Below the pieces are notes generated by a model, which saw nothing but the letters and a program-made list of their open reading frames with translations, was not told the DNA's origin and ran no database searches. From a virus: 31,481 nt of DNA. The DNA lies in IMG/VR virus record IMGVR_UViG_3300028454_000103; one strand, written 5' to 3'. Numbering within the stretch: position 1 is the stretch's first letter; the number at the start of each line of letters is the position of its first letter. The translations under genes and the position numbers were made by a program. Below, piece after piece: positions 481-31,444 of this stretch.

Positions 481-1626
481 TTGAAAACCTATAAACACCT
501 TTTAGAGCAGATCGCAGACAAAGACAACGTAAGAAAAGCAATACTTAACGCAAGCAAGAGAAAAAGACATAGAAAAGACGTTAAACAAGTGATAGAGAAT
601 ATAGACTACCACGTAGAAGTAGTACACAACATGCTACTTACTGGCAGCTATAAGGCACACGTAGACGCGCCGTGTATTGTTAATGAGGGTACACACCACA
701 AAGTACGGCGCATACGTAAGCCACATTACAAGTACGACCAGATTATACACCACTGTATTATACAAGTACTGCAGCCGATATTAACCGCACCTATGTACGA
801 GTACAGCTGCGGCAGTATTCCAAAGAGGGGCGCACACTACGGCAAGCGGCGGCTAGAAAAGTGGATAAGGAACGACGTAAAAGGCACTAAGTATGTTTTT
901 AAAATGGATATTAAGCACTTTTACGAGAGTGTAGACCAAGACGTACTTAAGAGCATGCTAAAGGCTAAAATAAAAGACTGGCGGGCACTAGAGCTTATAT
1001 ACACAGTTATAGACAGCTGCGAAAAGGGCTTACCGTTAGGCAATTATACTAGCCAGTGGTTTGCAAACTTTATGCTAACGCCACTAGACCACTACATAAA
1101 AGAAGAGCTGCACGCTAAGTACTATATGCGATACATGGACGACATAGTAATACTGGGCGGCAATAAGAAAGAACTACACAAGATACACAAGGCTATAGAG
1201 AAGTACTTAAGCGAGCGCTTACACTTACGCATTAAGGAAAACTGGCAAGTATTTAGGCTTGTATATACCGACAGGAACGGACGGCAGCGCGGCAGATCAC
1301 TAGACTTTATGGGCTGGCAATTTTACCGCGAGAAAACCATACTACGCGAAAGCATTTACTTACGTATTGTACGCAAGGCAAGGCACGTAGGTAAGCACAC
1401 GACCATACAGGGCGCGCAAGGTATGATTAGCTACATGGGCTATATTAAGCATACGGACTGTTACGGCACTTACAGAGACTATATACGCCCGTATGTAAAT
1501 ATAGGAAAACTAAAGAAATTCACATCAAAAAGAGCCAAGAAAGGAGCGCTAAAAAATGGAGCGGAGAAAAACGACAGGAACGCAGACGACACAGCCAGCA
1601 GTACTAGACCTAGACAGCAGCCCTAG
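481..1626 (+). CDS. DGR-type reverse transcriptase
   Basis: 381 aa with a TTG start 13 nt after AGGAG. RT motifs IPKRG, FKMDIKHFY and YMDD (nt 1132-1143). LGNYTSQ (nt 1033-1053) matches the DGR-clade [I/L]GxxxSQ signature. Adjacent TR. Confidence 0.93.
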   Translation: MKTYKHLLEQIADKDNVRKAILNASKRKRHRKDVKQVIENIDYHVEVVHNMLLTGSYKAHVDAPCIVNEGTHHKVRRIRKPHYKYDQIIHHCIIQVLQPILTAPMYEYSCGSIPKRGAHYGKRRLEKWIRNDVKGTKYVFKMDIKHFYESVDQDVLKSMLKAKIKDWRALELIYTVIDSCEKGLPLGNYTSQWFANFMLTPLDHYIKEELHAKYYMRYMDDIVILGGNKKELHKIHKAIEKYLSERLHLRIKENWQVFRLVYTDRNGRQRGRSLDFMGWQFYREKTILRESIYLRIVRKARHVGKHTTIQGAQGMISYMGYIKHTDCYGTYRDYIRPYVNIGKLKKFTSKRAKKGALKNGAEKNDRNADDTASSTRPRQQP

Positions 1627-1903
1627 TACGGTTTACATACGAAAGAACATTACCAAAGCGACAGTAAGAGACGCAGAGGGCGTTAAAGTGCCCGTATGGA
1701 AGTACGACGAGGCAGCAATTAGCCGCGCAGAGTATGAGAAAAACGAGGCAATTTACAGCGAGCTTGTAGTAATGATTGAGCAGCAGGCAGCTAACGACAG
1801 CATTTACAGCGAAGTACTTTTACAGCAGGCAGACGCACAGGCAACGCTAGAAGAGCAAGACCAGACGCTAGCAGACATTCTACTTACAGTACAGGGGGTT
1901 TAA
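1556..1903 (+). CDS. Hypothetical protein, possibly XkdW-like (tail-fibre-associated); overlaps the RT 3' end by 71 nt
   Basis: AGGAG lies 10 nt upstream of the ATG. Acidic helical C-terminus ending LADILLTVQGV. Sits directly before an XkdX-like ORF, as in PBSX-type tail modules. Confidence 0.5.
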   Translation: MERRKTTGTQTTQPAVLDLDSSPSTVYIRKNITKATVRDAEGVKVPVWKYDEAAISRAEYEKNEAIYSELVVMIEQQAANDSIYSEVLLQQADAQATLEEQDQTLADILLTVQGV

Positions 1904-1906
1904 ACC

Positions 1907-2050
1907 ATGAGCAGACTTTATAAGACCGTAAAAAGATACTACGACAAAGGCTACTACGACGAGGCAGACGTAGCAGTATTTGTTAGAGCGGGGAGCATTA
2001 CACCAGAAGAGTACGAGCTTATTACTGGCGAGCCTTACGAGGAAGAGTAA
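1907..2050 (+). CDS. XkdX-family small phage protein (47 aa; below the ORF-track cutoff)
   Basis: Translation MSRLYKTVKRYYDKGYYDEADVAVFVRAGSITPEEYELITGEPYEEE. The KRYYD...ITxEEYExITGE pattern is typical of XkdX. Confidence 0.6.
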   Translation: MSRLYKTVKRYYDKGYYDEADVAVFVRAGSITPEEYELITGEPYEEE

Positions 2051-2729: not shown

Positions 2730-3089
2730 ATGGAGCAGATTATTAACAACTGGGCGCTTATTATTGCAGCAGTAGCGCTCGTAGTATCAGTGGTAACAGC
2801 TGTAATTAAGTTTACCAACATGCCAACAGCCGCCCAGATCGCAAAAGTAAAAGAGTGGCTGCTTTATGCAGTGACTATGGCAGAGAAAGAGCTAGGCGGC
2901 GGCACTGGCAAGCTAAAGCTACGCTACGTGTACGACTTGTTTTTAACTAAGTTTAACTGGCTGGCAAAGGTTATTAGTTTCGAGCAGTTTAGCGACCTAG
3001 TAGACGAGGCACTAGAGGAAATGAAACGCCTATTAGAGAGTAACAACGCAGTAAAAGAAATTGTAAATAACAACGTTAAAGAGGAATAG
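2730..3089 (+). CDS. Holin, LL-H-family-like
   Basis: Single N-terminal TM (WALIIAAVALVVSVVTAVI) plus a helical cytoplasmic domain. Lies immediately upstream of the endolysin. RBS agaggt. Confidence 0.65.
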   Translation: MEQIINNWALIIAAVALVVSVVTAVIKFTNMPTAAQIAKVKEWLLYAVTMAEKELGGGTGKLKLRYVYDLFLTKFNWLAKVISFEQFSDLVDEALEEMKRLLESNNAVKEIVNNNVKEE

Positions 3090-3101
3090 GGGGCGCAGAT
3101 C

Positions 3102-3998
3102 ATGGCAACAGCAGCACAAGTAGCAACATTTATACAGACGATAGCGCCGCTAGTACAAAAGTACGCCAAGCAGTACGGCTACAAGGTAGCTAGCCCTATT
3201 ATTGCGCAAGCGTGCTGCGAGAGCGCATACGGTACAAGCTGGATAAGCAAAGAGCCATACTTTAATTTTTTCGGCATGAAGTGCGGCAGCGCATGGAAAG
3301 GGCGCAGCGTTTCTGCCAGAACAAAAGAAGAGTACCAAGTAGGCGTACTTACTAGCATTGTAGACAACTTTAGAGCATACGACAGTTACGAAGAGGGCGT
3401 AGAGGGCTACTTTAAGTTTATTAACTGGAGCAGATACGCTAACCTTAAGACAGCCACCACACCAAAGCAGTACTTAGAGTACATCAAAGCAGACGGCTAC
3501 GCGACCAGCAGCACGTATGTTAATACAAACATGAATATTATTAACACTTACGGGCTAACTAAGTACGATAATTTGGACTTAATCGAGGCAGCGCCAGTGC
3601 AGCAGCCAGCGCAGCAGCCTACTTTTAAGGCGACAGGCACAGCAGTTACGACAGCTAACTTACGCATGAGGGCGGGAGCTGGCACGAGCTTTAGTACACT
3701 CTTAGTAGTTAACAAGGGCTGCACCGTACAAGTAGACGGCACAGTAGTTAACGGCTGGTATCATTGCAAATATGGTAACGTAGTGGGCTACATGAGCGGC
3801 AACTACCTTAAGAACATACAAACAACCAGCAGCACGCCTGCTGCCACACGCACGCACAAAGTAAAGAGGGGCGACACTCTTAGCCAGATCGCAAAGAAAT
3901 ACGGCACAACCGTTAACGCTATTGTACTGGCTAACCGCAGCAAGTACCCTAAGATTACAGCTAACTATATTGTAGTGGGCTGGGAGCTTGTAGTATAA
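3102..3998 (+). CDS. Endolysin: N-acetylglucosaminidase (GH73) + SH3 + LysM
   Basis: AQACCESAYGTS...FNFFGMK glucosaminidase motif. SH3-like TANLRMRAGAGTSF...GWYHCKYGNVVGYMSGNYL. C-terminal LysM HKVKRGDTLSQIAKKYGTTVNAIV. Confidence 0.9.
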   Translation: MATAAQVATFIQTIAPLVQKYAKQYGYKVASPIIAQACCESAYGTSWISKEPYFNFFGMKCGSAWKGRSVSARTKEEYQVGVLTSIVDNFRAYDSYEEGVEGYFKFINWSRYANLKTATTPKQYLEYIKADGYATSSTYVNTNMNIINTYGLTKYDNLDLIEAAPVQQPAQQPTFKATGTAVTTANLRMRAGAGTSFSTLLVVNKGCTVQVDGTVVNGWYHCKYGNVVGYMSGNYLKNIQTTSSTPAATRTHKVKRGDTLSQIAKKYGTTVNAIVLANRSKYPKITANYIVVGWELVV

Positions 3999-4222
3999 TG
4001 GGGCACGACGAGGCAGTAAGAATACTAGCAGCTAATGCAGCATGCCAGCTGCAAAACGGCTGCAATGTTTGCCCGCTGCTGCCGTTTTTGGTAGATCATG
4101 GACGGCAAGAGGGTTACTGCAGAGAGAATACAAGCCCAGAAAAAGTGCGAGAGGCAGTTACAGTTATACACCAAGAGGCGACGCTTAAGGCAGTCTTAGA
4201 CGGCACAGCAAAGCTGCAGTAA
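3998..4222 (+). CDS. Small Cys-containing hypothetical protein (moron position between lysis genes and attP)
   Basis: 74-aa ORF whose ATG overlaps the endolysin stop (TAATG). No recognisable domain. Confidence 0.5.
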   Translation: MGHDEAVRILAANAACQLQNGCNVCPLLPFLVDHGRQEGYCRENTSPEKVREAVTVIHQEATLKAVLDGTAKLQ

Positions 4223-4227
4223 GTGAC

Positions 4228-4425
4228 ACGTAACTAACAACCGATAGAGAAAAGCCCAGAAAATGCGCGCCCGCCGTTTCAATCGAGGAGGCGGCAAAGG
4301 CTGGCAAGTTTTAAGAAATGCCGTATTTTCTAGGCTTTGCAAAAATCTAAAACAATGTGAGATAGTACAAAATAGTACGGGTAACTAACACGTAACTAAC
4401 AAGTAACTAACACACGTAACTAACA
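4228..4425. repeat. Five copies of GTAACTAACA (three as ACGTAACTAACA): candidate integrase arm-type sites
   Basis: Copies at 4230-4239, 4381-4390, 4392-4401, 4403-4412 and 4416-4425. The last four are spaced 11, 11 and 13 bp apart. Confidence 0.8.
4251..4338. repeat. 14-bp inverted repeat (13/14 match) flanking about 60 bp: candidate attP core region
   Basis: AAAGCCCAGAAAAT (4251-4264) against ATTTTCTAGGCTTT (4325-4338). Lies between the solitary and clustered GTAACTAACA copies. Confidence 0.5.
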
Positions 4426-4427
4426 AA

Positions 4428-4464
4428 AGAGCTAACCAGTATAGCAGCTGGCTAGCTCTTTTTT
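4428..4464. terminator. Bidirectional rho-independent terminator between the lysis operon (+) and integrase (-)
   Basis: Stem AGAGCTAACCAG / CTGGCTAGCTCT (12 bp, 1 mismatch) followed by TTTTTT and preceded by AAAA. Confidence 0.8.
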
Positions 4465-4504
4465 ATGTCGGAATATGTCGGAATATGTCGGAATACGTCG
4501 GACG
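4465..4504. repeat. Tandem 10-bp repeat ATGTCGGAAT x3 plus a degenerate fourth copy
   Basis: Copies at 4465-4474, 4475-4484 and 4485-4494, then ACGTCGGACG. Followed by CATTATGCG x2 and ACTTGCGTA x2 up to the integrase stop codon. Confidence 0.85.
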
Positions 4505-4594
4505 CATGCGACATTATGCGGCATTATGCGTATACATGAGGTTTACAAAATGCAAGGCGTAGGACTTGCGTATAACTTGCGTACGAGTTGCGCG

Positions 4595-5650
4595 TTATGT
4601 TATTTTCTCTATTTCCTGCTTAAGCTCGTCTATTGTTCTATGCGTATACACCTTTTCTGTTACGTCGTCTATGGCGTGCCCTACAATGAGCTTAAGTATA
4701 TACTCGTCTACGCCGCTTTCTTTCGCTTTAGTTATGAACGTGTGGCGGGTATCGTGGGGCGTGTGCTGCATTTTAAAGCGTTTCATAATCTTTTTAAAGC
4801 GCCCGCGCCACTTATCGTACGTAAGCTCTTTACCAGTCTGGCTGCTTTCATCATAAAAGAGGGTATCGCAGCCAGCGGCAGCAGCTTTGTTATAGCAGCT
4901 TTCGACCAGATCATAAACGCGGCTATGTATCGGTACTACCCTATTGCGCCCTGCGTCAGTCTTAAGCCCGCCTATTATGGTACGCTCTTTTAAGTCTACG
5001 TCGCTTAGTTTAAGTATAGCTAGCTCTTGTGGACGAAAGCCGCTATATATTCCTATAAGCAGCATGTCTACAAACGGGTAAGCCAGATTACTAAACAGCG
5101 TTTCTATTTCATTATCAGAGAACGGCACACGCTTAATAACCTTTTCGCCCTTTTTAACGCTATTACACAGCGCCGCGTAGTCTTTGTCGCATATTTCATG
5201 CTTAAGAGCGTACTTGTACATGAGATTATAAAGGCTTTTCATGCGCTGCTTAGTGGGCTGCCCTGCTGCCGCGTCTTTAATAGTTTGTTCTAAGTGGTTT
5301 ACGCGTATATCTCTAAAGCGCATATCGTGCAGCGGGGCGCTATGGTTATATGCGCTTATCCATGTGCGGCGGGCGCTGGGTACTATAAGCTCGAAATGCT
5401 CTTTAGCCCACTTTTCGTACACTTCCTTAAATGTAATCGTATTTACTTGTATGTCGTAGGGGTTAGCGTTGAAGTCTGCCAGCGCTTGCAGTGCAGCAGC
5501 CTTAGTAGGATAATAGCCGACTGTTACGAAATGCTGCTTAGCTTTTCCGCTATCATCAATAGACCAGCCCGTAGTTTTACGGGCTATATATGGGTTACGT
5601 CGTTTGCCAGATAGTTTATAAACAGAGCCGTAGCCGTTTGGTAGTTTCAT
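4595..5650 (-). CDS. int: Tyrosine site-specific integrase
   Basis: 351 aa. C-terminal catalytic pattern HDTRHTF...GH...EKVYTHR. N-terminal arm-binding-like MKLPNGYGSVYKLSGKRRNPYIARK. Confidence 0.95.
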   Translation of the reverse strand: MKLPNGYGSVYKLSGKRRNPYIARKTTGWSIDDSGKAKQHFVTVGYYPTKAAALQALADFNANPYDIQVNTITFKEVYEKWAKEHFELIVPSARRTWISAYNHSAPLHDMRFRDIRVNHLEQTIKDAAAGQPTKQRMKSLYNLMYKYALKHEICDKDYAALCNSVKKGEKVIKRVPFSDNEIETLFSNLAYPFVDMLLIGIYSGFRPQELAILKLSDVDLKERTIIGGLKTDAGRNRVVPIHSRVYDLVESCYNKAAAAGCDTLFYDESSQTGKELTYDKWRGRFKKIMKRFKMQHTPHDTRHTFITKAKESGVDEYILKLIVGHAIDDVTEKVYTHRTIDELKQEIEKIT

Positions 5651-5694
5651 ATAATCACGCTTTCGTATGTAAAATGTGTATAAACGCTCTTAAA

Positions 5695-5729
5695 AGTGAC
5701 TAAAAAGGGGATATAGTGACTAAAAAGGG
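5695..5729. repeat. 15-bp direct repeat AGTGACTAAAAAGGG x2 with 20-bp periodicity (candidate regulator binding sites)
   Basis: Copies at 5695-5709 and 5715-5729, between the integrase start and a small + strand ORF. Confidence 0.85.
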
Positions 5730-5780
5730 CGTTAATATGTCTGTACCGCAAAATATATTAAGAAAGTGAGGTACTAAGAC

Positions 5781-5891
5781 ATGAGTAACAAGGAACTTAA
5801 GCAGCAGATCATAGACGCACTGGACGGTATTAACGACCAGAGGGCGCTTAAAATCATACTGCAGTTTATCTTAGGCATAAAAGACAAGCTA
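5781..5891 (+). CDS. Possible 36-aa micro-ORF (MSNKELKQQIIDALDGINDQRALKIILQFILGIKTS)
   Basis: GAGGT lies 8 nt upstream of the ATG and a terminator hairpin follows directly. Very short and has no homology call. Confidence 0.35.
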
Positions 5892-5904
5892 ATAAGGTAA
5901 AAAA

Positions 5905-5927
5905 TAAGCGGCGCATTACGTGCCGCT
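5905..5927. terminator. Bidirectional terminator hairpin
   Basis: AAGCGGC / GCCGCTT stem. TTTTAATTTT follows on + and ATTTTTT follows on -. The repressor stop codon lies in the loop. Confidence 0.75.
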
Positions 5928-6278
5928 TTTAATTTTGTCTACAAAGTCTTTTACTAGCTGCCACTGCTGCGGGCTAAGCTGCCCTAGCGCTAAGAAAGTC
6001 TTTTTAACGAACTCGTCGCCGTCTGTAAATACAGCGCCCAGCAGTTTAGCTAGTTGCTCGTCGTCGGACACTTTAACGAACATATCGCCGCTGCCAGTCT
6101 CTAAGTATTCTTTATTAACGTTAAACTCCCTGCAGATACTAATAAGCATTTGAGGGGTAACGTTATTAACGCCGCTTTCTATTCTGGAAATAGTAGCGCG
6201 CGTAACACCTAAGCGAGCGCCGAAACTTTCCATAGACATATCTAACGCTATTCTAATTGCTTTAACTCTTTCTTTCAT
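5916..6278 (-). CDS. XRE/cI-type HTH repressor
   Basis: HTH_3 pattern MSMESFGARLGVTRATISRIESGVNNVTPQMLISICREFNV. Divergent from the early operon and adjacent to the integrase. Confidence 0.9.
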   Translation of the reverse strand: MKERVKAIRIALDMSMESFGARLGVTRATISRIESGVNNVTPQMLISICREFNVNKEYLETGSGDMFVKVSDDEQLAKLLGAVFTDGDEFVKKTFLALGQLSPQQWQLVKDFVDKIKSGT

Positions 6279-6322
6279 AGTCTCAATTCCTTAATAAGTA
6301 TAAAATGCCTTTTTCTACCTAG

Positions 6323-6351
6323 ATTATAAGGCGTAAAGTTACTAAACGCAA
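6323..6351 (-). promoter_or_regulatory. Candidate repressor promoter (TTGCGT - 17 nt - TATAAT on the minus strand)
   Basis: Read on the reverse complement: -35 at 6346-6351 and -10 at 6323-6328. Confidence 0.6.
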
Positions 6352-6370
6352 CAGAAATATAAATTATATG

Positions 6371-6399
6371 TTGACACGCGTACGCGACGTAACTATAAT
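6371..6399 (+). promoter_or_regulatory. Early lytic promoter with perfect sigma-70 consensus; 10-bp palindrome CGCGTACGCG (6377-6386) in the spacer is a candidate operator
   Basis: TTGACA (6371-6376), exact 17-nt spacer, TATAAT (6394-6399). Confidence 0.8.
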
Positions 6400-6485
6400 G
6401 TTACATATAGAAACACAACAGCACTACATTTAGTACATGCGGAAACGCAAAACCACAATTTAACTTACGAAAGAGAGGTAACAAC

Positions 6486-7244
6486 ATGACACAGTACAAG
6501 ACATTAGAGGCACAGCAGAGCGCGGCAAAGGTTATTACAGGCTGCATAGACGCGATTAACAACGAAAAGGGCTTACCGTACCAGCTGGGCACATTAACAG
6601 TAGAGTACATAACGAAATACTTAGCAGAGTATAGAAAACTAATCGAAAAGGACATAGAAGAGAGCCAGAAAGCAGCAGAGGCAGCAGGCGACGCAGAAAC
6701 AGTTATTAAGATATGGGCAGCAAACAAAGAGAACGGCTACAGAGCTTACCCGCCAGAGTATGAAGTAATGTTTTGGAATGTTGCAGGCGAGGCTTTAAGA
6801 ATACCAGACGGAAAGCCTAACCATGAATACCAAACTAAGTTTGGCTTTGACACTTTCGAAGAGGCAGCGCTTTTTATTGAAAGCGTAAACGTACCAGACG
6901 CAGTACAAGTAAGTATTAACGACGAGTGCTACGACGTTTACCCAGCAGAGCTGCAAGTAAAGGGCAATAAAATGCAAGAACGCAGCCGCCTAGACTTTGA
7001 CGACGTACGCAGCTTTTGTATAAGCAAAAACCTTTACACACGAGGCACTAACGAGGAATACACACGCCTTGCTAATATGCTTTTCTACTGGCAGGAAACA
7101 GGGCAGAACATAGACACAGCTAAGCTGCAGATAGTAGCGCAGAATATCTTAGACCACAGCGACACAGAGTACGAGCTAGAAAGTCTTATGTTTTCACTTA
7201 AGCGCGAGGCAGTTATTACTAGCTACTGCGTAGCAGATCACTAA
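6486..7244 (+). CDS. Hypothetical early protein (first gene of the early operon)
   Basis: 252-aa ORF with RBS gagaggt. No recognisable domain. Confidence 0.75.
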   Translation: MTQYKTLEAQQSAAKVITGCIDAINNEKGLPYQLGTLTVEYITKYLAEYRKLIEKDIEESQKAAEAAGDAETVIKIWAANKENGYRAYPPEYEVMFWNVAGEALRIPDGKPNHEYQTKFGFDTFEEAALFIESVNVPDAVQVSINDECYDVYPAELQVKGNKMQERSRLDFDDVRSFCISKNLYTRGTNEEYTRLANMLFYWQETGQNIDTAKLQIVAQNILDHSDTEYELESLMFSLKREAVITSYCVADH

Positions 7245-7265
7245 GCGACAGAGGGGGCAGCGGGT

Positions 7266-7562: not shown

Positions 7563-7766
7563 ATGAGAAAAAAGCAGAACGTAGACCAGATCATAGAAGA
7601 GACACAGCAGAGAACATTTTTAGAGAATAACCCGCAGTACAACGAGTTTAACGACCTTGCAAAAGAAGTAGCGCAGCTGCCAAGAGAGCAGCAGGCAAAA
7701 GTAGCTATTTTCGCACAGGGCGTTATAGCTGCAACGGCAGCAGGGGTAGGAAATGCAACAGAGTAA
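7563..7766 (+). CDS. Hypothetical small protein
   Basis: 67-aa ORF with RBS aggtaaaaagga. Confidence 0.55.
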   Translation: MRKKQNVDQIIEETQQRTFLENNPQYNEFNDLAKEVAQLPREQQAKVAIFAQGVIAATAAGVGNATE

Positions 7767-8284: not shown

Positions 8285-8314
8285 GGACACAAGCGACAGA
8301 GGGGCGCGTAGATC

Positions 8315-8587
8315 ATGGCAACTAATAAGGAATTATTAGAGCAAGTACGGACGCTTAAAGGCAAGCTCTTAAGAGCAAGCCACGAGAAAAGAAAACTAGA
8401 AGAGAAAAACGCAGCACTGGCTATGGAGATAGACGCAGCAGAGCAGCTGCTTATTAACACCAGAAACAACTTAGCAGAGTGCGGCGAGAAAATGCTAAAA
8501 GCGCAAAAAGAGGCTTACGACTGGCAGCAGGCAGCAGAGGGGCTGGCACGCATGCTAGAAGAGCTTAAGGCGCAGGGCAAGTGGTAA
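8315..8587 (+). CDS. Hypothetical coiled-coil protein
   Basis: 90 aa, heptad-like and charged. RBS agagggg. Confidence 0.65.
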   Translation: MATNKELLEQVRTLKGKLLRASHEKRKLEEKNAALAMEIDAAEQLLINTRNNLAECGEKMLKAQKEAYDWQQAAEGLARMLEELKAQGKW

Positions 8588-10121: not shown

Positions 10122-10485
10122 CAACATGGTTACAGCAGATCACATAAAAATAGTACTGCTTAAGTTTAAAGTCGAGCTTACAGACAGGCGCAACGGCAAA
10201 AACAGCAAAGCAGAGGCTATAGAGATTATGGGCGCAGACTTTGACGTAGACGCAGCCCAGAAAAAAGTAGAGCAGAAATACGCAGCACTGGGCTACGACG
10301 TTTACGACATAGAGGTAGTAGGGCAGCGCACATACGATACTACAGCCTTAGAGCTTTACGAGACACTAACAGACGACGAGCTAGGCAAGCCAGTAAAAGG
10401 CATTACGAGCCTTTTTAATAGCGCCGATAGCTGGCGCACAGCTGCAGAGGACGCAGCACGAGAAGAGCTTAAGGGGGATATATAG
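10108..10485 (+). CDS. Hypothetical protein
   Basis: 125-aa ORF with RBS gagagg. Confidence 0.7.
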   Translation: MAKNNNMVTADHIKIVLLKFKVELTDRRNGKNSKAEAIEIMGADFDVDAAQKKVEQKYAALGYDVYDIEVVGQRTYDTTALELYETLTDDELGKPVKGITSLFNSADSWRTAAEDAAREELKGDI

Positions 10486-16413: not shown

Positions 16414-16423
16414 GGCTTAAGGC

Positions 16424-19918: not shown

Positions 19919-19955
19919 TAACCAGATCACAAAGAAAAATAAGAGAGGTAAAGAC

Positions 19956-22136: not shown

Positions 22137-22616
22137 ATGGCAGAGATTAACACCACAGGGCTAGAGGAATTAAGCGACGCTTTTATGAGGCACGAGGCAG
22201 CAGCCGACAAAGCAGTAGAGGAAATGCTACTAGCAGAGGCAGACGAGTACGTTAAAGCCTACAAGCATGCAGCAGCAGGCTACGGCATAAGAAAGACTGG
22301 CGGCTTTATCGAAAGCATAAAAGCAGGCAGCATAAAGGACGAGGGCACAGCTAAAAGTATCGAAATAATACCAGAGGGGCGCACAGATCATGGCGCGGAC
22401 TATGGCGGCGGCTATTCCAACAAAGGAAACAAGAGAAAAGGCAAAGCGCAAAACGGCAAAGTACGCTACGCCACAATAGGCTATATTTTCGAGTACGGCA
22501 CTAGCACACTTGCAGCGCGCCCGTGGTTAACACAAGGACAGCTACAAGCAGAGCAGCCAGCGTATGAGAAAGCGCAGGAAATATGGGGCAAGTACGTAGA
22601 GGGTACTTTAAGCTAG
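22137..22616 (+). CDS. HK97 gp10-family neck/tail component
   Basis: 159 aa. N-terminal LEELSDAFMRHEAAADKAVEEML pattern and synteny. Confidence 0.7.
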   Translation: MAEINTTGLEELSDAFMRHEAAADKAVEEMLLAEADEYVKAYKHAAAGYGIRKTGGFIESIKAGSIKDEGTAKSIEIIPEGRTDHGADYGGGYSNKGNKRKGKAQNGKVRYATIGYIFEYGTSTLAARPWLTQGQLQAEQPAYEKAQEIWGKYVEGTLS

Positions 22617-23526: not shown

Positions 23527-23555
23527 CAGTTAACCAGATCATAAGAAAGGTAAAG

Positions 23556-23985: not shown

Positions 23986-24173
23986 ACACTGCGCGCCTTA
24001 TTTACATTGCAATAGTTATGCTGCGCTTACCAGAGCGCGAGGCATGGAAAAAAACGCCGTACCAGATCATGCGACTATTTAGGCTGCATAAAGAATATAA
24101 CGGCATGAACACAACGACAGCCACCAAAGGCGAACAACTAGCGCCTATAGACATAGCACTAGGGGGCTTTTAA
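23599..24173 (+). CDS. Tail assembly chaperone -1 frameshift product (gpGT analogue)
   Basis: The -1 frame is open from 23886 to the TAA at 24171-24173, which abuts the tape measure ATG at 24174. The slippery heptamer lies within the overlap. Confidence 0.65.
23955..23961 (+). promoter_or_regulatory. Candidate -1 programmed frameshift site G GGA AAC
   Basis: X XXY YYZ heptamer in the zero frame of the chaperone gene (codons gcG GGA AAC). Compare lambda G GGA AAG. Confidence 0.6.
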
Positions 24174-26822
24174 ATGGCAGATACAGTAGAAAAACAAGTC
24201 AAAACTAAAATAAGTTTCGACGGCGAGGCAGACTACAAGAAAGCCGTAGCGGATATTAACAGCAACCTTAAAACGCTTAATAGCGAAATGAAGTTAGTAA
24301 CCGCAGAGTACAAGGCTAACGGGGCTAGCGTTGAGACTTTGAAAGCTAAACAAGAGACGCTGCAGAAAGTCTACGCAGAGCAGAAAGCAAAAGTAGAGGC
24401 TACAGAGAAAGCACTAGAGCGCTGCCGTAAGGAAACAGGCGAAAACAGCGACGCTAGCAAAAAGCTAGAGCAGCAGCTTAACTACCAGAAAGCAGCTTTA
24501 GTAGGCACAGAGGGCGAGCTTAAAAAGACAGCTACAGAGCTAGACAACGTAGAGAAAGAGGCAGACGGCGCAGGCAAAGAGCTTAAGAAGAGCGGCGACG
24601 CAGCCACAGACGGCGCTAACAAGTTTGAGGCAGCAGGCAACGCACTTAAGGCTACAGGCGCAGCCATTGCAGCAGCTACAGCAGCTATAGCGGCAGCAGC
24701 CGTGGCAGCTGGTAAGGCTATCTGGGATATGGCTAACGACGTAGCAAGCGCTGGCGACGAGATAGACAAGGAAAGCCAAAAACTGCAGATAAGCAGCGAC
24801 CTTTACCAAGAGCTTAGCTACGCATGCGAGCGCAGCGGGGCAAGCATTGACGACCTTAAAAAAGGCGTTAAGAACATTACCGACGAGCTAGGCAAAGCGC
24901 AGGACGGCACAGCGGGCGCGGGCGAGAAATTCGAAAAGCTAGGCGTATCGCTTAAGGACGCTAACGGCAACTTTAAGAGCACAGAGCAAGTGCTTATGGA
25001 AAGCATAGACGCACTGGCAGCTATGGACGACGAGACAGCCAGAAACGCTGCAGCTAACGAGATATTCGGAAAGAGCGCAGCAGAGCTTTTACCACTGCTT
25101 AACAGCGGCAGCGAGGGCATAAAGGAACTTATGCAAGAGGCAGACGCTTACGGCATGGTAATGAGCGCAGACGCAGTAGCAGCTAGCGCAGCTTTCGAGG
25201 ATAGCTTAAAAAGACTGCAGGGCACTTTTACAGGGCTTAAAAATAGTATCGTAAGCGAGCTTTTACCGTCTCTTACTACCCTTATGGACGGCTTTAGCGA
25301 CATGCTGGCAGGCAAGGACGGCGCAGCAGAAAAGGTTAAAGAGGGCGTTAAGGGCGTAGTAGACAGCATAACGGACACGTTACCGCAGCTAGTAAGCATG
25401 CTTTCTACTATCGTGCAGGCTATTGCAGACGTAGCGCCAGACATTATAGCAGCGCTTGCAGAGGGAATTATAAACGAGCTGCCAGCACTTGCAGAGAGTG
25501 CGCTACAGATCGTAGAAAAACTGGCAGACGCATTGCTTAAATTGCTGCCACAGTTACTAGAGGCTGGCGTACAGATCATATTACAGCTGGCGCAGGGTAT
25601 CGCGCAGGCATTGCCGCAGCTTATACCTACAGTAGTAGAGGTAGTACTAGAGCTGGTAGACACGCTTATAGACAACATACCGCTACTTATTGACGCAGCT
25701 TTGCAGCTGGTAACTGGTTTAGCAGAGGGAATTATAGCAGCTATACCCGTTATTATTGAAAAGCTACCAGAGCTTATTACTAGCATTATTAACGCGCTTA
25801 TCGAGGGCATACCGCTGCTTATACAGGGAGCTATACAACTCTTTATGGCGCTTGTGCAGGCAATACCCGTAATTATTGAGGCGTTAACAGCAGCTTTGCC
25901 GCAGATCATAGAGGCAATAGTTAACGGACTTATTAACGGCTTGCCTATGATTATTGAGGGCAGCATACAATTATTTATGGCGCTTTTAGAGGCTATACCA
26001 GTAATTGTAGAGGCGCTTATAAATGCTTTGCCGCAGATAGTGCAGGCTATCGCTACAGGACTTGCAGCAGCATTGCCAGAACTTGCAGCGTGGGGCGCTA
26101 ATATGCTTAACGGCTTTGTTACTATCTTTAGCAATGTGCTTAATAGTGTTATTCAGTGGGGCGGCAACATGCTTACACAGGCAGTAACCAGCATTACAGC
26201 TTTTGTTAACGGCATTATTAACACAGCCAAAGACATACCAGTAAAGCTATACAACGCTATCATAGGCGCAGTAGCACAAGTGCAGCAGTGGGGGCAGAGA
26301 GTGCTAGAGACTGCTAAAAACGGTATGAACATGGTTAAAAACGGCATACTTAATGTGTTTAGTAACATAGGCGAGAGCTTTAAGACCGTAGGCAGCAACA
26401 TTGTTAACGGTATCTGGAACGGCATAAGCGCTGGCTGGGACTGGCTAAAAGAAAAGGTTAGCAACATTGCCAGCAGCTTACTAGACGCAGCAAAGGACGC
26501 TCTAGGCATTGCCAGCCCGTCTAAGAAATTTAGAGACGAAGTGGGCGTATTTATGGCGCAGGGTATCGGCGTAGGCTTTGAAAACGAAATGCAAAGCGTA
26601 TCTAAGCAAATTGCTAACGCTATCCCTACAGACTTTGACGTAACGCCACATGTTACTACTGGCTTATCTGCTACAGACTATGCGAGCGAGAACGGGCAGC
26701 AGCCTACATTACTTAGCCGCGGCGTAACCGTAATACAGAACATTTACGCAAACACGACAGACTACGCTAAGCAGCAGAGAGAGGCAGAGAAAAACTTTAG
26801 AATGATCGCGAGGACGGTATAA
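24174..26822 (+). CDS. Tape measure protein
   Basis: 882 aa. Coiled-coil N-terminus, hydrophobic repeat core. Largest gene of the tail module. Confidence 0.93.
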   Translation: MADTVEKQVKTKISFDGEADYKKAVADINSNLKTLNSEMKLVTAEYKANGASVETLKAKQETLQKVYAEQKAKVEATEKALERCRKETGENSDASKKLEQQLNYQKAALVGTEGELKKTATELDNVEKEADGAGKELKKSGDAATDGANKFEAAGNALKATGAAIAAATAAIAAAAVAAGKAIWDMANDVASAGDEIDKESQKLQISSDLYQELSYACERSGASIDDLKKGVKNITDELGKAQDGTAGAGEKFEKLGVSLKDANGNFKSTEQVLMESIDALAAMDDETARNAAANEIFGKSAAELLPLLNSGSEGIKELMQEADAYGMVMSADAVAASAAFEDSLKRLQGTFTGLKNSIVSELLPSLTTLMDGFSDMLAGKDGAAEKVKEGVKGVVDSITDTLPQLVSMLSTIVQAIADVAPDIIAALAEGIINELPALAESALQIVEKLADALLKLLPQLLEAGVQIILQLAQGIAQALPQLIPTVVEVVLELVDTLIDNIPLLIDAALQLVTGLAEGIIAAIPVIIEKLPELITSIINALIEGIPLLIQGAIQLFMALVQAIPVIIEALTAALPQIIEAIVNGLINGLPMIIEGSIQLFMALLEAIPVIVEALINALPQIVQAIATGLAAALPELAAWGANMLNGFVTIFSNVLNSVIQWGGNMLTQAVTSITAFVNGIINTAKDIPVKLYNAIIGAVAQVQQWGQRVLETAKNGMNMVKNGILNVFSNIGESFKTVGSNIVNGIWNGISAGWDWLKEKVSNIASSLLDAAKDALGIASPSKKFRDEVGVFMAQGIGVGFENEMQSVSKQIANAIPTDFDVTPHVTTGLSATDYASENGQQPTLLSRGVTVIQNIYANTTDYAKQQREAEKNFRMIARTV
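25610..26065 (+). repeat. Three degenerate tandem repeats of about 132 nt (44 aa) inside the tape measure gene
   Basis: TTTATGG recurs at 25842 and 25974 (132-nt period). Peptide units are ..IPLLIQGAIQLFMALVQAIPVIIEAL..ALPQIIEAI.. and ..LPMIIEGSIQLFMALLEAIPVIVEAL..ALPQIVQAI.. Confidence 0.7.
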
Positions 26823-27721: not shown

Positions 27722-28885
27722 ATGGAGCTAAGAGTATTTACAAGAGACCTAGAGCCGTTAGGAATTGTAGACGAGCTTATAAGCACAATATGGCAGCCTA
27801 CATACTGGCAGCAGGGCAACTACGACGACTGCAAACTACTTGCGCCCGTAACAGACAATAACAACAACTTGCTTGTAAAGGGCAACATAGTAGTACTGCA
27901 TGGCGAGGCAGCAGAGTACACAGACGAGTACGGCGAGTGGCGGCGCGCTATGCAGATTACCTACAGGCACATAACAAAGGACGAAAACAACACAGAGCAA
28001 ATAGAGCTACAAGGCTGCTTTTTAAAGAAATGGCTTTCTAAGCGTGTGCTGCTTTCTAATCAGATCATAACGGGCACTAACCAGAGCATTATTAACGCGC
28101 TGGTAGTTAACAACGTAGGCGACAATGCCATAAGCGCCCGCCAGTTTGAAAACTTTATTATGTTGCAGCAGGACGACTTAGGCGGCAGCAGCGTAGACTA
28201 CACGACCAAGTACGGCGACGGACTAGCAGACGCGGTATACGAGAGAGCTTTAAGCGGCAAGCTGGGCTACGACATACTCGTAAACGAGCGCAATAGGTTA
28301 TACGGCTTTTGGCTGTATAAAGGCGACGACATGAGCAGCGGCAACAGCGAGGGTAACACGCCCTGCATATTTAGCCGCGACTTTGACAACGTAACAGAGC
28401 AGGACTACACAGAGAGCATAGAGAACATTAAAAACGTATGCTACTGCACCAGTGCTGCAGACGAGGACGGCACAATATATACGCAAGAGGTTTACGAGGA
28501 CGAGCAGGCGGGCATAGATCGCGACGAGTTTTACGTAGACATGACTAATATAAGCTGGACTGTTAAGGACGAGCAGGGGCAAGAGACAAGGCTAACACCA
28601 GAGCAGTACATAGAGCTTATGACTACAGAGGGCTACGCGCAGCTGGACGACTACGGCGAGGTTATGACGTTTGAAAGTACTATTAACACCAGTAAAAACT
28701 TGCAGTACAAGCGCGACTTTAACGTAGGCGACATAGTAACAACGATAGAGAAAAACTGGGGAATACGTATAGACGCTCGTATAACCAAAATAGGCGAGAC
28801 ATGGCAGAACGGTAAGCACACGCTAGAAGTTACTTTTGGCGAGAGCATGCCGACTTTGCTAGATAAAATTAAGAAAGTGAGGTAA
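27722..28885 (+). CDS. Tail-associated / baseplate hub protein (Sipho_Gp37-like)
   Basis: 387 aa. N-terminal MELRVFTRDLEPLGIVDELISTIWQPTYW pattern and position after Dit. Confidence 0.7.
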   Translation: MELRVFTRDLEPLGIVDELISTIWQPTYWQQGNYDDCKLLAPVTDNNNNLLVKGNIVVLHGEAAEYTDEYGEWRRAMQITYRHITKDENNTEQIELQGCFLKKWLSKRVLLSNQIITGTNQSIINALVVNNVGDNAISARQFENFIMLQQDDLGGSSVDYTTKYGDGLADAVYERALSGKLGYDILVNERNRLYGFWLYKGDDMSSGNSEGNTPCIFSRDFDNVTEQDYTESIENIKNVCYCTSAADEDGTIYTQEVYEDEQAGIDRDEFYVDMTNISWTVKDEQGQETRLTPEQYIELMTTEGYAQLDDYGEVMTFESTINTSKNLQYKRDFNVGDIVTTIEKNWGIRIDARITKIGETWQNGKHTLEVTFGESMPTLLDKIKKVR

Positions 28886-28889
28886 GGAC

Positions 28890-29876
28890 ATGGCACAAAA
28901 ATGCTTTCCGTTTAACAGCGACAGCGGCGACAGAGTTTATAAAGCAGAGGACTTTAGGGCATACTTTGCGCAGTTTATCGGTAACGGCGTATTTTATGCG
29001 AACTCTAACGCCCTTAAGGTAGTAGAAAGTAGCGGCATGAGCGTTAACGTAAATGCAGGCGCAGGCTGGATAGCTGGCGCAGGATATATTAACGACAGTG
29101 TGCTACAGCTTACGCTTGCAAATGCAGACGGCGCACTTAACCGTATAGACAGAGTAGTACTACGCTGCAGCTACACAGAGCGCGACGTATACGTAGTAGT
29201 AAAGCAGGGTAGCTTATCAGCACAGCCAACAGCACCAGCGCTTACACGTAACGCAGATAATTACGAGCTGGCACTTGCAGACATTTACGTAGCAGCAGGC
29301 GCTACAAGCATTACGCAGCAGGATATTACAGACCAGAGGCTTAATACAACGCTTTGCGGTATCGTTACGGGGCTTATTGAGCAGGCAGACACGACAGACA
29401 TTTTTAACCAGTTTGAGAGCTACTTAACACAGTTTAAGGCGCAGTACATTGCAGACATTGAAGAGTGGACGAGCGCGCAGGAAAGTGCTTTTACATCATG
29501 GAGCACACAGCAGCAGCAGGACTTTACAGACTGGGTAGACACAATTAGAGACATTTTGGACGAGGCGACAGCAGGACACTTACAGCTAGAAATAGAGGCA
29601 GCCGTTAAAGATACTTTCGAGCGTTTCTACGGCATGGCAGAGCAGCAGACAGACATTAAAACTAACGGGCAGATCGTAGTAACAAACGACGACGGCACGC
29701 TAACAGTTACTAAGGGCGTGGACGCAGAAACGGGCTACAAGACAATTACAGAGGTACTGGAAACAGCAGCCACAAGTAGCCAAGGCGCACACACTTACAC
29801 TAAGGTAACTACATTTATACCAGAGCCGACAGCCACAGTTAAAAAGCGCATTAGAGAGGAGTACAGCATAGCATGA
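28890..29876 (+). CDS. Tail fibre / baseplate structural protein
   Basis: 328 aa. ATGA-coupled to the DGR target gene. No enzymatic motif. Confidence 0.6.
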   Translation: MAQKCFPFNSDSGDRVYKAEDFRAYFAQFIGNGVFYANSNALKVVESSGMSVNVNAGAGWIAGAGYINDSVLQLTLANADGALNRIDRVVLRCSYTERDVYVVVKQGSLSAQPTAPALTRNADNYELALADIYVAAGATSITQQDITDQRLNTTLCGIVTGLIEQADTTDIFNQFESYLTQFKAQYIADIEEWTSAQESAFTSWSTQQQQDFTDWVDTIRDILDEATAGHLQLEIEAAVKDTFERFYGMAEQQTDIKTNGQIVVTNDDGTLTVTKGVDAETGYKTITEVLETAATSSQGAHTYTKVTTFIPEPTATVKKRIREEYSIA

Positions 29877-31444
29877 GTTACGCAGAGCAAAATTATACTA
29901 TCGACGAGTTAACAGAGGTTATTAACGCCGCTGCCACTGGCATACCACCCGCCAACATGCAGCAGTTTAGCGTATCTGCAGGCGACACTAAAGTAAGTAT
30001 CGTAGCTTTAGAGCCAGCAGACACAGAGGTAGACGGGCAGCTAGTAGCAAGCTGCAAGGGCTTTAAAATCGTTATGAACGACGACCACTACCCAGTAGAC
30101 GAGACAGACGGCACAGTAGTAGTAGACCACGTAGCAACTGGCAGCGCATTGCAGCAGGAAGTTACAGGACTTACAAACGACCAGCAGTACTACTTTGCAG
30201 CTTTCCCTTATACAGATCATGGCGTAGTTAACAGGGCAGCAGGCTTAAGAGTACTTGCGGGCAGCCACCCTAACAGACAGACAGCAACGCCTAAAGCATA
30301 CGTACTTTACGGCTTTAAGAGAACTAAGGCAGACAGCAACCCGCAGACAAGAGTAGTAGCTACAGACATGGCAGTAGGGCTTACACCCGCAAGCATGGAC
30401 GCAAGCACAGGCGAAATTAACTTAGGCGGCTGGGCTAATGCGTGGTTTGTAACAGGCAACAAGCCAGTAATGCTTAAGAGCGACGGCACTATAGACTACG
30501 AGCTTAACCCTAACGACTACACAAAGAAAGCAGACGGCACAGCCAGCGACGTAGCTAACACAAGTTACGACGGTAACGCTATGGCGCTCTTTCCTACATG
30601 CTGGGTTAAGCGCTGGCAAGACAGCACTTACGAGTATTTCCAAGTTTGCAACATCAAACTTAACGACGACTTTAAGGCGTACGCACACCAGCGCAGCGAC
30701 GGTACTATTATGGAGTGGTTTGCGCGCTCTATCTATGACGCTGGCGTAGTAAACAGCAAGGCACGTAGTATTAGCGGGCTTACACCTAACAACACGGTAG
30801 CGGGCGGCACACAGCTTAGCTATGCACAGGCTAACGGCAGCTTATGGGATAGCGACACATGGAGCAGGGTAGCTCTTATCTGGGATTTATTAACCCTTAT
30901 GTCGTTAGACGACGACGTACAGCACGCGTGGGGCTATGGCTGGTATACTGGCATGTCGCAGGCTAGCCACCTTAAGGCAGCAGGCTTAGGCAATACTAAG
31001 GGGCAATTCTGGGGCAAGAGAGAAAACAACACCGTTAAGGTATTCCACTTAGAGAATTTTTGGGGCAATATCTGGAAAATTGTACAGGGGCTTGTATATA
31101 ACACCACTGGCAAGTACGGCGTAAAAATGACTGCACCATACAACAACAGCGGCAGCGGCTACGTAGCTACGAGCTTTGGTTTATCTGGTACAAGTGGCGG
31201 CTATCAGTCAGCCCACAATATGAGCGAGCACGGCTGCTTACCTACAACAGCAAGCGGCAGCGAAACCACTTATATACCAGACGGCGCGTGGTGGAATACT
31301 ACGCAGCAGAACTTTGCCCGCTTTGGCTGCGCTGGTGGCTATGGCTTGCCCGTTGGGCGCGCTTTGTCTGTGGGCTCTGCGCTTTCGGACTCGCTTTGGC
31401 GTTTCGGGCTTGCCTTGACTTGCGAGCAACCTTTAGCGGCGTAA
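29873..31444 (+). CDS. DGR target protein: tail fibre / receptor-binding protein with a C-terminal C-type-lectin-like variable region
   Basis: 523 aa. The last 45 codons contain the VR. The TR-encoded version reads ..FGSNGNNGLPVGRALNVNNALSNSNWNYGLA.., a typical DGR CLec ligand-binding segment. Confidence 0.9.
   Translation: MSYAEQNYTIDELTEVINAAATGIPPANMQQFSVSAGDTKVSIVALEPADTEVDGQLVASCKGFKIVMNDDHYPVDETDGTVVVDHVATGSALQQEVTGLTNDQQYYFAAFPYTDHGVVNRAAGLRVLAGSHPNRQTATPKAYVLYGFKRTKADSNPQTRVVATDMAVGLTPASMDASTGEINLGGWANAWFVTGNKPVMLKSDGTIDYELNPNDYTKKADGTASDVANTSYDGNAMALFPTCWVKRWQDSTYEYFQVCNIKLNDDFKAYAHQRSDGTIMEWFARSIYDAGVVNSKARSISGLTPNNTVAGGTQLSYAQANGSLWDSDTWSRVALIWDLLTLMSLDDDVQHAWGYGWYTGMSQASHLKAAGLGNTKGQFWGKRENNTVKVFHLENFWGNIWKIVQGLVYNTTGKYGVKMTAPYNNSGSGYVATSFGLSGTSGGYQSAHNMSEHGCLPTTASGSETTYIPDGAWWNTTQQNFARFGCAGGYGLPVGRALSVGSALSDSLWRFGLALTCEQPLAA
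31311..31421 (+). repeat. DGR variable region (VR)
   Basis: Gap-free 111-bp match to TR 214-324 with 19 substitutions, all opposite TR adenines. Ends 23 nt before the stop codon. Confidence 0.93.

Follow-up and report, generated by a model that had tools for sequence, protein, structure and literature searches.

Lambdoid phages that lack Rec modules carry many Chi sites on their top strand (PMC12315714, PMC3784561). Of the 23 Chi sites in LLS, a phage of E. coli (about one per 1.9 kb), 20 are on the top strand and three on the other, and in the Pseudomonas phage MD8 the division by strand is 32 to 0 (PMC12315714). A top-strand Chi is active for RecBCD entering from the genome's right end, while terminase covers the left end (PMC12315714, PMC3784561). 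Here we describe the word CAGATCRY, with core AGATCRY, in a stretch of viral DNA of 31,481 nucleotides (IMG/VR record IMGVR_UViG_3300028454_000103; the whole of this stretch is referred to as the window). We consider it highly likely that the word is a selected polar DNA signal and, by analogy with the phages above, put forward more tentatively the idea that it may be a Chi-like signal for a host enzyme of the AddAB/RecBCD type. We know of no Chi or other polar genome signal in Lachnospiraceae, or in Clostridia generally.

Identity of the window

The window was assembled from a metagenome as a circular contig (ENA ERZ27247021, k141_88346). Its last 141 nt (31341–31481) exactly duplicate its first 141 nt (1–141); because this terminal repeat is the k-mer overlap of a circular assembly, the real circle measures 31,340 bp. 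The overlap holds no GATC site. With 94–95% identity to Arawn and Idris, two Butyrivibrio phages of the genus Arawnvirus that grow on B. fibrisolvens DSM 3071, and 93% to Closwp03, this rumen phage is, on sequence identity, a member of Arawnvirus. A related prophage, 87–93% identical, is resident in Butyrivibrio sp. CB08. The paper on the isolates Arawn and Idris makes no mention of the motif, of restriction or of methylation, and a literature search on CAGATC with methyltransferases or Type III systems, and on Butyrivibrio methylomes, gave nothing relevant.

Nearly all genes lie on the + strand, with the integrase and repressor on the minus strand. The composition of the + strand is highly asymmetric (A 32.9%, T 20.0%), the dinucleotides TC and CC stand at 0.30 and 0.52 of expectation, and the base-composition bias tracks the coding strand.

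Distribution of CAGATCRY

A recount returned 38 GATC tetramers at precisely the 38 coordinates that the initial annotation had tallied by eye. The contexts it described were also exact: all 38 are followed by R-Y, A comes before 36 of them and CA before 31, 25 read CAGATCAY and nine read ACCAGATCA. GATCY, GGATC, GATCC and GATCTG have zero copies in the window. In an independent scan CAGATCRY was found 31 times, always on the + strand, versus 0.79 expected on both strands in dinucleotide-preserving shuffles. The sites are as follows, canonical copies being those that read CAGATCRY.

508–515, + strand, canonical CAGATCGC; Q-I-A in the reverse transcriptase gene
1293–1300, + strand, canonical CAGATCAC; frame AGA-TCA
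2835–2842, + strand, canonical CAGATCGC
3096–3103, + strand, canonical CAGATCAT; intergenic, extends into the endolysin start codon
3885–3892, + strand, canonical CAGATCGC
4092–4099, + strand, variant TAGATCAT; GAT-CAT
4907–4914, + strand, canonical CAGATCAT; antisense in the minus-strand integrase gene, there coded GAT-CTG
5805–5812, + strand, canonical CAGATCAT; integrase–repressor interval, in a possible 39-aa + strand open reading frame (ORF)
7234–7241, + strand, canonical CAGATCAC; GAT-CAC-TAA, the final codons of the gene
7587–7594, + strand, canonical CAGATCAT
8309–8316, + strand, variant TAGATCAT; intergenic, extends into a start codon
8990–8997, + strand, canonical CAGATCAT; intergenic
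10136–10143, + strand, canonical CAGATCAC; GAT-CAC
11350–11357, + strand, canonical CAGATCAC
11980–11987, + strand, canonical CAGATCAT
12498–12505, + strand, canonical CAGATCGT; in rep, rare codons GAT and CGT, relatives GAC AGA
13113–13120, + strand, canonical CAGATCAC; GAT-CAC
13640–13647, + strand, variant GAGATCAT
14506–14513, + strand, canonical CAGATCAT
15039–15046, + strand, canonical CAGATCAT; Q/E-L-I in relatives
16463–16470, + strand, canonical CAGATCAC; in TerL, relatives K-I-T, AAGATTAC
17705–17712, + strand, canonical CAGATCAT; in TerL, relatives M-L-L / G-L-V
18777–18784, + strand, variant ATGATCAT; window-specific, the relatives' ACAGATCGTG site is 232 nt downstream
19923–19930, + strand, canonical CAGATCAC; intergenic
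20346–20353, + strand, canonical CAGATCAT
21069–21076, + strand, canonical CAGATCAC
21138–21145, + strand, variant AAGATCGC; window-specific, relatives ATT
22384–22391, + strand, canonical CAGATCAT; T-D-H, relatives A-K-H
23535–23542, + strand, canonical CAGATCAT; intergenic
24063–24070, + strand, canonical CAGATCAT
25506–25513, + strand, canonical CAGATCGT; in the tape measure gene
25572–25579, + strand, canonical CAGATCAT; window-specific, relatives ATT
25902–25909, + strand, canonical CAGATCAT
26802–26809, + strand, variant ATGATCGC
28061–28068, + strand, canonical CAGATCAT
28515–28522, + strand, variant TAGATCGC
29670–29677, + strand, canonical CAGATCGT
30213–30220, + strand, canonical CAGATCAT; GAT-CAT

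The GATC sites occupy all three reading frames, as had been noticed at the outset (22 NNG-ATC, 9 GAT-CNN and 1 AGA-TCA), and six sites fall outside gene calls (GATC at 3098, 5807, 8311, 8992, 19925 and 23537), although that at 5807 lies within a 39-aa ORF present in other annotations. The copy at 4909 is indeed antisense within the integrase gene (TAT GAT CTG GTC). Sixteen of the 38 sites have a gene boundary no more than 60 nt away (P = 0.009). The intervals of 0.3–2.2 kb originally given need correction: the GATC gaps are 66–1635 bp, the wrap-around gap being 1635 bp.

Enrichment against codon-aware nulls

The initial annotation saw GATC as several-fold rarer than composition predicts and as surviving almost only inside one motif. 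The deficit is true only under a mononucleotide model (about 114 expected). Synonymous-codon shuffles predict 33.7 copies and dinucleotide-preserving synonymous shuffles 18.5, and with 38 observed we rejected pure survival or depletion of GATC; the word is actively enriched, placed and spaced rather than a purged remnant. The lack of any copy on the other strand was correctly counted but is not significant, for RYGATCTG is expected merely 0.1–0.35 times, and strand exclusivity was rejected as evidence in itself. GATCY is expected 3–7 times and observed 0 times.

The forward excess, by contrast, stands when codons are shuffled, a control that had been proposed together with the motif; in the same control the absence of the reverse word does not go beyond the null. 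CAGATCRY occurs 31 times versus 10.4 or 7.8 expected from the synonymous shuffles (z = 11–18), and about 7 of the latter 7.8 are frozen sites that were not shuffled. When the genome was scanned without bias for k-mers against the dinucleotide-preserving synonymous shuffles, CAGATC led the 6-mers in enrichment and CAGATCA the 7-mers. Five canonical copies are intergenic, in 2.7 kb, against 0.15 expected; Arawn has eight against 0.15. The component that is not due to chance is the + strand excess together with the even spacing described below. In strand-asymmetric genomes, codon- and dinucleotide-aware nulls are needed before depletion or strand bias is claimed, and sites such as these are easily mistaken for survivors of restriction-site loss.

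Some other short words are unevenly represented. CATC/GATG is depleted 4.5-fold in the window (18 versus 81), and 17 of 18 CATC copies are on the + strand (1523 ... 30652), 14 of them as ACATCA; the 17 are unusually evenly spaced, with a coefficient of variation (CV) of 0.48. This is a second one-context, one-strand word, one base away from AGATCA. (G)TATCTG is enriched family-wide (11 versus 1.6 in the window, 17 versus 5.4 in the relative L019), ATCTGG is enriched in the relative L029 (12 versus 1.5), and AGAGGC(A) in each relative, with reverse copies almost nil.

Spacing, conservation and turnover

The CV of the gaps between sites is 0.507 in the window and 0.441 in Arawn, versus 0.96 ± 0.14 for random placement, and the largest gap of 1635 bp compares with about 3500 bp expected (P < 1e-5, 100,000 simulations). 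Drawing the null from codable positions makes the evenness more marked still, and of about 1600 k-mers those of the motif have some of the lowest CVs. The density is about one copy per 0.8 kb, and gaps in Arawn and Idris never fall below about 200 bp. No strict periodicity of the sites was found, and around them we found no hairpin, shared structure, longer repeat or Rfam match.

The motif is conserved in relatives: the Arawn, Idris, Closwp03 and CB08 sequences have 29–32 copies of CAGATC and none of GATCT. Bases of the motif diverge by 2.5%, versus 4.3% in the 20-nt flanks (P = 0.005, the relatives not being mutually independent). Three sites are private to the window, namely the non-canonical 18779 and 21140 and one of a pair 66 nt apart. 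A canonical site that Arawn, Idris, Closwp03 and CB08 carry at 19011 is missing here; the lost site lies 232 nt from 18779, and we regard the latter as a compensating replacement.

Codon context and amino-acid change

Isoleucine following CAG is coded ATC in 18 of 31 cases, versus 4 of 59 after other G-ending codons (P = 2e-7); CAG-ATC-RY usage is 75% in the window, with all other G-ATC contexts nearly unused. GATC-rich relatives use NAG-ATC-RY at 76–82%, NAG-ATC-RR at 41–64% and NAG-ATC-Y never. Because these GATC-permissive relatives share the preference, part of the enrichment over shuffles is a family habit. A pure by-product of codon context was rejected, since it leaves the intergenic copies, the GAT frame, the shift from E/K to Q, the even spacing and the turnover unaccounted for.

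GAT, a rare codon that accounts for 10% of Asp, appears in 5 of 9 [SPTA]-D-[HR] contexts, where it builds the word (P = 1e-3). The tripeptides Q-I-[IMTVA] number 2.73 per 1000 aa in the window and 1.13 in relatives (2.4-fold), while [EK]-I-[IMTVA] number 1.89 and 3.29 (0.58-fold), the combined total being unchanged; the ratio of Q to E/K before I-[IMTVA] is 26:18 in the window versus 232:676 in relatives (z about 4.8). As Q-I rises while E/K-I falls, the C at position −2 has been bought by protein changes. At orthologous positions in TerL, K-I-T has become Q-I-T and M-L-L has become Q-I-I. The earlier suggestion that selection acts on the nucleotide sequence rather than on protein is borne out: the word is built in two reading frames as well as in spacers, and both rare codons and amino-acid replacements go into it.

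Orientation dependence, also proposed initially, is supported by D-L dipeptides. In + strand genes 0 of 40 are coded GAT-CTN, which after a codon ending in RY would yield the reverse site at little cost, while the minus-strand integrase gene places its forward copy through exactly such coding, GAT-CTG.

Replication polarity and gene content

The features that bear on the replication of the window phage are these.

12260–13018, + strand: rolling-circle replication initiator (PF23343 REP_ORF2-G2P; HUH motif RHHHLVI; two-tyrosine YLIKY)
12212–12225, + strand: putative double-strand origin AACACTTGATAAAA, 38 nt upstream of rep; contains CTTG/ATA, the nick consensus for Reps of the phiX174/pC194 type
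10490–11110, + strand: single-stranded DNA-binding protein (SSB) paralogue 1, OB fold at residues 107–204
14592–14999, + strand: SSB paralogue 2

The Rep ORF, of the phiX type with two tyrosines, also matches the PHROG 'rolling circle DNA replication initiation'. In about 50 loci the exact origin 14-mer has a single copy, which lies upstream of TerL on the + strand; these loci comprise the close relatives and about 40 family relatives (74–80% TerL identity) whose DNA is otherwise well diverged. We infer from these sequences that the + strand is the strand nicked and displaced, and the two SSB genes fit replication rich in single-stranded DNA. The family is one of tailed temperate phages replicating with a phiX174-type HUH Rep, and the putative nick site CTTGATA is perfectly conserved; a second CTTGATA occurs at 15505–15511, in the AT-rich spacer ahead of the HNH gene. 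The dispersed words were rejected as Rep nick sites, the conserved nick word being CTTGATA, which GATC-free relatives keep. Dispersed nicking by Rep is also unlikely because many nick sites would cut the genome into small circles.

Searches of Pfam and PHROGs with proteins of the early/replication region identified no recombinase, exonuclease, Gam/Abc2-like protein or RecBCD/AddAB inhibitor, no DNA methyltransferase domain and no primase, although about ten small ORFs have no assignable function. The annotation of Arawn likewise lists no recombination module or RecBCD/AddAB inhibitor, and that of Arawn and Idris no methyltransferase domain.

The wider family

Relatives of TerL at 74–80% amino-acid identity comprise at least 600 IMG/VR matches and prophages in many Lachnospiraceae. 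We surveyed GATC in 103 family loci of about 20 kb each. Essentially no GATC is present in 63 of them, presumably in answer to DpnII/MboI-type restriction in their hosts, and no equivalent evenly spaced word was found among the 103. In the GATC-free loci ATC never follows a G-ending codon (0 of about 870 contexts).

Among the other lineages only L162 has its GATC sites all of the AGATCRY type: in L162/L163 (IMG/VR 3300028454_000334) all 40 read AGATCR, 37 continue with Y, and position −2 is C or G. Three genes are common to the window and L162 and nearly absent elsewhere (10108–10485, 13034–13687 and 14449–14595); they encode an acidic protein of 125 aa, a lytic transglycosylase that is a lipoprotein (lipobox LLGSC) and a membrane protein of 48 aa. 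Since at least two have the look of envelope proteins, a shared type of host is suggested, and the three more probably mark such a host than read the DNA. A GT-B glycosyltransferase in the replication module (11089–12168) has no homologue in the 103 relatives and is confined to Arawnvirus.

One contig, JGI 3300023707 Ga0257072_1000809 (L091/L096; 60,256 bp), holds two phage copies rather than a prophage junction. One copy is without the integrase, the repressor and a 252-aa ORF (corresponding to about 4223–7265 of the window), and this natural deletion variant should be obligately lytic.

Other phages of the same host, and host DNA

Phage Arian (L084, MN882551) was isolated on the same strain and has unrelated early genes. 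It carries 58 GATC, 51 as AGATC, and no GATCT. AGATCA is its most enriched 6-mer (46 versus 13.9, TGATCT 0) and other GATC contexts are depleted (7 versus 23.8). On one strand AGATC(A/G) occurs 50 times versus 18.7 expected in Arian and, more weakly, 36 versus 16.9 in Ceridwen; CAGATCRY itself has five copies in Arian and the octamer is not enriched. GAGATCA occurs 22 times versus 2.8, and the sites are not evenly spaced. A minus-strand gene block (14952–17565) is informative, as all 7 of its GATC read AGATCR on the + DNA strand versus 1.9 expected (P < 5e-4), and D-L is coded GAT-CTN in 6 of 10 cases within the block and 0 of 64 elsewhere. Because this block keeps AGATCR on the + strand, the polarity in Arian follows the DNA strand and not transcription. 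No candidate for a common reader protein emerged between Arian and the window; what they have in common is limited to structural proteins, TerS/TerL, HNH and SSB, with 22–45% identity. GGATC/GATCC is avoided in Arian and Ceridwen (2–3 and 0–2 copies versus 7–13 expected); it is absent from the window, where fewer than one is expected.

Our host sample is the 9.8 kb flank beside the CB08 prophage, reached through the integrase, of which 9.1 kb is coding and part may be a mobile element. Scans with argH and the endolysin added next to no Butyrivibrio DNA. In these 9.1 kb CAGATCRY occurs 6 times versus 1.6 expected, the reverse 0 times, and AGATCR 18 times versus 6.8, on the motif strand of the prophage. 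A general coding habit of Lachnospiraceae was rejected as the source, with 290 AGATCR versus 229 YGATCT in 330 kb of chromosomal genes. The CB08 prophage (NODE_2, L098) adjoins a GGGtGRT-family gene and CB08 is a lysogen; the paper on Arawn found no evidence of lysogeny. Other CB08 phage contigs have a coverage of about 2750–3000× versus 155× for a chromosomal contig (about 20-fold), and we conclude from this that prophage induction was active in the sequenced culture.

Word avoidance and a diversity-generating retroelement

The odd coding-strand composition is common to the family of at least 600 contigs: A/T is about 1.7, TC is 0.2–0.5 and CC 0.52 of expectation, and TT and CT are enriched. 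T|C at codon junctions is nearly forbidden in the window (CTTC 2, GTTC 2, GGTC 1 and CCTC 0, against GAGG 245), which looks like a footprint of YC avoidance. Under codon-aware nulls the window is also short of GGCC (0 versus 31–69 expected), CCGG (0 versus 32), AAGCTT (0 versus 16–17), GATG (1 versus 40–49), CTGA (2 versus 30–88), GAAGG and GAAGC (0 each versus about 45 each) and AGGAG (7 versus 58–63). This scarcity of short words is probably heavy avoidance of restriction sites and of internal Shine–Dalgarno sequences.

The window also has a complete diversity-generating retroelement, with the template repeat (TR) at 214–324, the reverse transcriptase at 481–1626 and the variable repeat (VR) at 31311–31421, at the 3' end of the tail gene 29873–31444. 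The 19 TR/VR mismatches are all at adenines of TR (19 of 23 A). In the Arawn paper the reverse transcriptase is viewed as a possible abortive-infection or immunity gene.

A possible Chi-like signal for host AddAB

The word lies on the strand that has nearly all genes, that runs in the direction terS to terL to structural genes and that carries the conserved Rep nick site. It behaves like a directional coverage signal, in which every 1.6 kb or so needs one copy and close copies are redundant. Linear phage DNA would expose double-strand ends in several ways, at the first-injected end, at ends cut at cos and at the tails of rolling-circle concatemers. A host helicase–nuclease of the AddAB/RecBCD type would enter such an end and degrade the DNA until it met a correctly oriented Chi, then switch to RecA loading and recombination. 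A phage that has neither a recombinase nor an inhibitor of the enzyme would profit from many sites in the one active orientation, and an added site would be most useful in the largest existing gap, leading to even spacing. The orientation is suited to entry from the right, non-terminase end, with 31 of 31 canonical and 38 of 38 total sites on the terS-to-tail strand. Dabert et al. in 1992 reportedly found that correctly oriented Chi shields rolling-circle tails from RecBCD. The initial annotation had suggested four ideas, an orientation-dependent signal of the Chi or KOPS kind, nick sites, a methylation target and evasion of a Type III-like enzyme; the first of these fits best, with close precedent in the Rec-less, Chi-rich phages (PMC12315714), and we rank a Chi-like signal first among the explanations, though at less than even odds.

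Several points weigh against Chi. In LLS the Chi sites are bunched at the right end and not evenly placed (PMC12315714). No motif of comparable dominance was seen in relatives that have the same Rep but other hosts, and the NAG-ATC-RY codon habit, being family-wide, accounts for part of the excess (76–82% versus 75% here). Arian prefers GAGATCAG, while the window lineage has GAGATC once and GATCAG never; since only the core AGATC(A/G) is common to them, one 8-nt host Chi cannot cover both phages. On the host side the CB08 sample is just 9 kb, part of it possibly a mobile element. The Butyrivibrio metagenome-assembled genome L189 shows no CAGATCRY excess (1 versus 1.4), and neither does the 50 kb of B. 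proteoclasticus pCY360 (CAGATCRY 6 versus 6.6, AGATCR 51 versus 61.6). Known Firmicute Chi sequences (AGCGG, GAAGCGG, GCGCGTG) are G/C-rich and unlike this word.

If the word is a Butyrivibrio Chi it would be a testable candidate for the control of AddAB in a major rumen and gut clade, and a candidate for the first Chi-like sequence in Lachnospiraceae. The strategy of having no recombination module and many Chi sites would then extend from Proteobacteria lambdoids to a Firmicutes rolling-circle siphovirus.

Alternative explanations

Other functions can be considered for a word on the displaced strand. In one, the 8-mers on the SSB-coated + strand would start complementary-strand primers in lagging-strand synthesis, about one per Okazaki-fragment length. 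The two-tyrosine Rep, the CTTG/ATA site on the + strand and the two SSBs would make that strand the lagging-strand template, the signal is strand-specific and at the level of DNA, and gaps of 200–1650 nt with a CV of 0.44–0.51 are what a coverage requirement predicts. We nevertheless judge priming quite improbable: the early/replication-region scans recognised no phage primase, bacterial DnaG reads trinucleotides and not 8-mers, over 60 relatives that share the Rep and its nick site are essentially free of GATC and lack an evenly spaced word of another kind, and Arian has the AGATCA bias with a replisome-organiser/DnaC-type module and no rolling-circle Rep. The word might alternatively be the target of a strand-specific enzyme, either a nickase making T5- or tf-like interruptions or an activity that modifies one strand (Type III, IIL or ISP-like Mod adenine methylation, phosphorothioation or glycosylation). 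An asymmetric 8-mer that is degenerate at R and Y is the kind of word that nickases and methyltransferases typically recognise, the consensus is restricted to one strand (38 of 38 on +), and tf-like nick sites are likewise on one strand with a common consensus (TACT/RTGMC). An HNH endonuclease gene adjoins the terminase genes, the GT-B glycosyltransferase is an Arawnvirus-only gene among the 103 relatives, and the lineage-specific flanks (position −2 being C here, C/G in L162 and G in Arian) sit better with enzymes particular to a lineage or strain than with a single host factor. Set against this, the same scans found no methyltransferase, HNH and VRR-NUC are family-wide and present in GATC-free relatives, and the glycosyltransferase is absent from L162, which has the AGATCRY state; there is also no known reason for selecting dense, evenly spaced nicks or marks, and a target of this kind is in our view unlikely. 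The sites might also be a dedicated 'strand code' of a rolling-circle dsDNA phage, in which evenly spaced 8-mers on the displaced strand serve priming, nicking or chemical marking through a lineage-specific reader. We consider that idea doubtful; its reader would be, for example, an unassigned early ORF or the Arawnvirus-only glycosyltransferase, and if true it would be a new genome-wide, spacing-constrained signal for replication or marking in tailed phages.

Restriction offers a further explanation, in which a single orientation evades an enzyme that needs inverse sites (Type III, ISP or MmeI-like) and codon context fills the allowed orientation. The single orientation of the Type III-like evasion first proposed does hold, for 36 of 36 AGATC here and 51 of 51 in Arian; CAGATC looks like a Type III site (compare CAGAG and CAGCAG); CAG-ATC-RY usage of 75% equals the family baseline of 76–82% while other G-ATC contexts are purged; and most relatives purge GATC fully, as under strong restriction pressure on the tetramer. 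As the whole story it fails, since the excess, placement and spacing are not predicted: the intergenic copies (5 versus 0.15), the rare codons, the change of E/K to Q, the even spacing and the replacement after loss have no place in it. The reverse orientation is expected only 0.1–3 times and its absence needs no selection, and Arian tolerates GATCAG and GAGATC on the same host. We think evasion very unlikely as the explanation, and give equally little credence to a signal in RNA (CAGAUCRY in long + strand transcripts, for processing or protein binding near cistron junctions) or a functionless by-product of codon bias and restriction avoidance. The proximity of 16 of 38 sites to gene boundaries, with only one site clearly antisense, agrees with the former; the avoidance of many words by this genome (GGCC, CCGG, AAGCTT, GATG, CTGA, GAAGS) and the similar survival of CATC in one context agree with the latter. 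A signal in DNA rather than RNA is indicated because of the antisense copy in the integrase gene and the seven in Arian (7 versus 1.9), and there is neither an Rfam match nor shared structure around the sites. A by-product cannot yield the even spacing (P < 1e-5), the intergenic excess or the amino-acid replacements. If the word is not Chi, an 8-mer made by amino-acid replacement and kept on a single strand at intervals of 0.2–1.6 kb is a constraint of a new kind on how phage genomes are laid out, which could involve priming, nicking or marking of the displaced strand.

Comparison with known systems

The word resembles the 5'-GTC sites of T7 primase and the complementary-strand origins of G4 and phiX in lying on the lagging or displaced template at near Okazaki-length spacing. 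It differs in that known primase sites are of 3 nt, single-strand initiation (ssi) signals are structured over 40–300 nt, the window has no recognised primase gene and its relatives with the same Rep lack the word. With the nick sites of T5, tf and phiKMV-like phages it shares a dispersed one-strand consensus in a degenerate style of 8–9 nt; those sites, however, are fewer (from a handful of major ones to about 14) and irregularly spaced, and no lineage-specific nickase was identified in the window phage. Like the EcoP15I sites (CAGCAG) of T7 it is a short, asymmetric, CAG-initial word in a single orientation in a unidirectionally transcribed genome. Unlike them, its allowed orientation is enriched, built with amino acids and evenly spaced, and the missing orientation is statistically unsurprising.

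The Chi-rich, Rec-less phages LLS, MD8 and P1 (PMC12315714, PMC3784561) are the comparison on which the Chi-like reading draws. The window word matches no known Chi, is built round the palindrome GATC and is evenly spaced, not clustered at the right end; the host enzyme would be AddAB and not RecBCD, host over-representation comes from 9 kb only, and a second phage of the same host shares just the 6-nt core. In common with LLS and MD8, there is no recognisable recombinase or RecBCD/AddAB inhibitor, and codon usage alone is insufficient to explain the sites. As in these phages, an octamer occurs tens of times (23 in LLS, 32 in MD8 and 31–38 here), at a density far above chance, with nearly all or all copies on the top strand of a terminase-first map.

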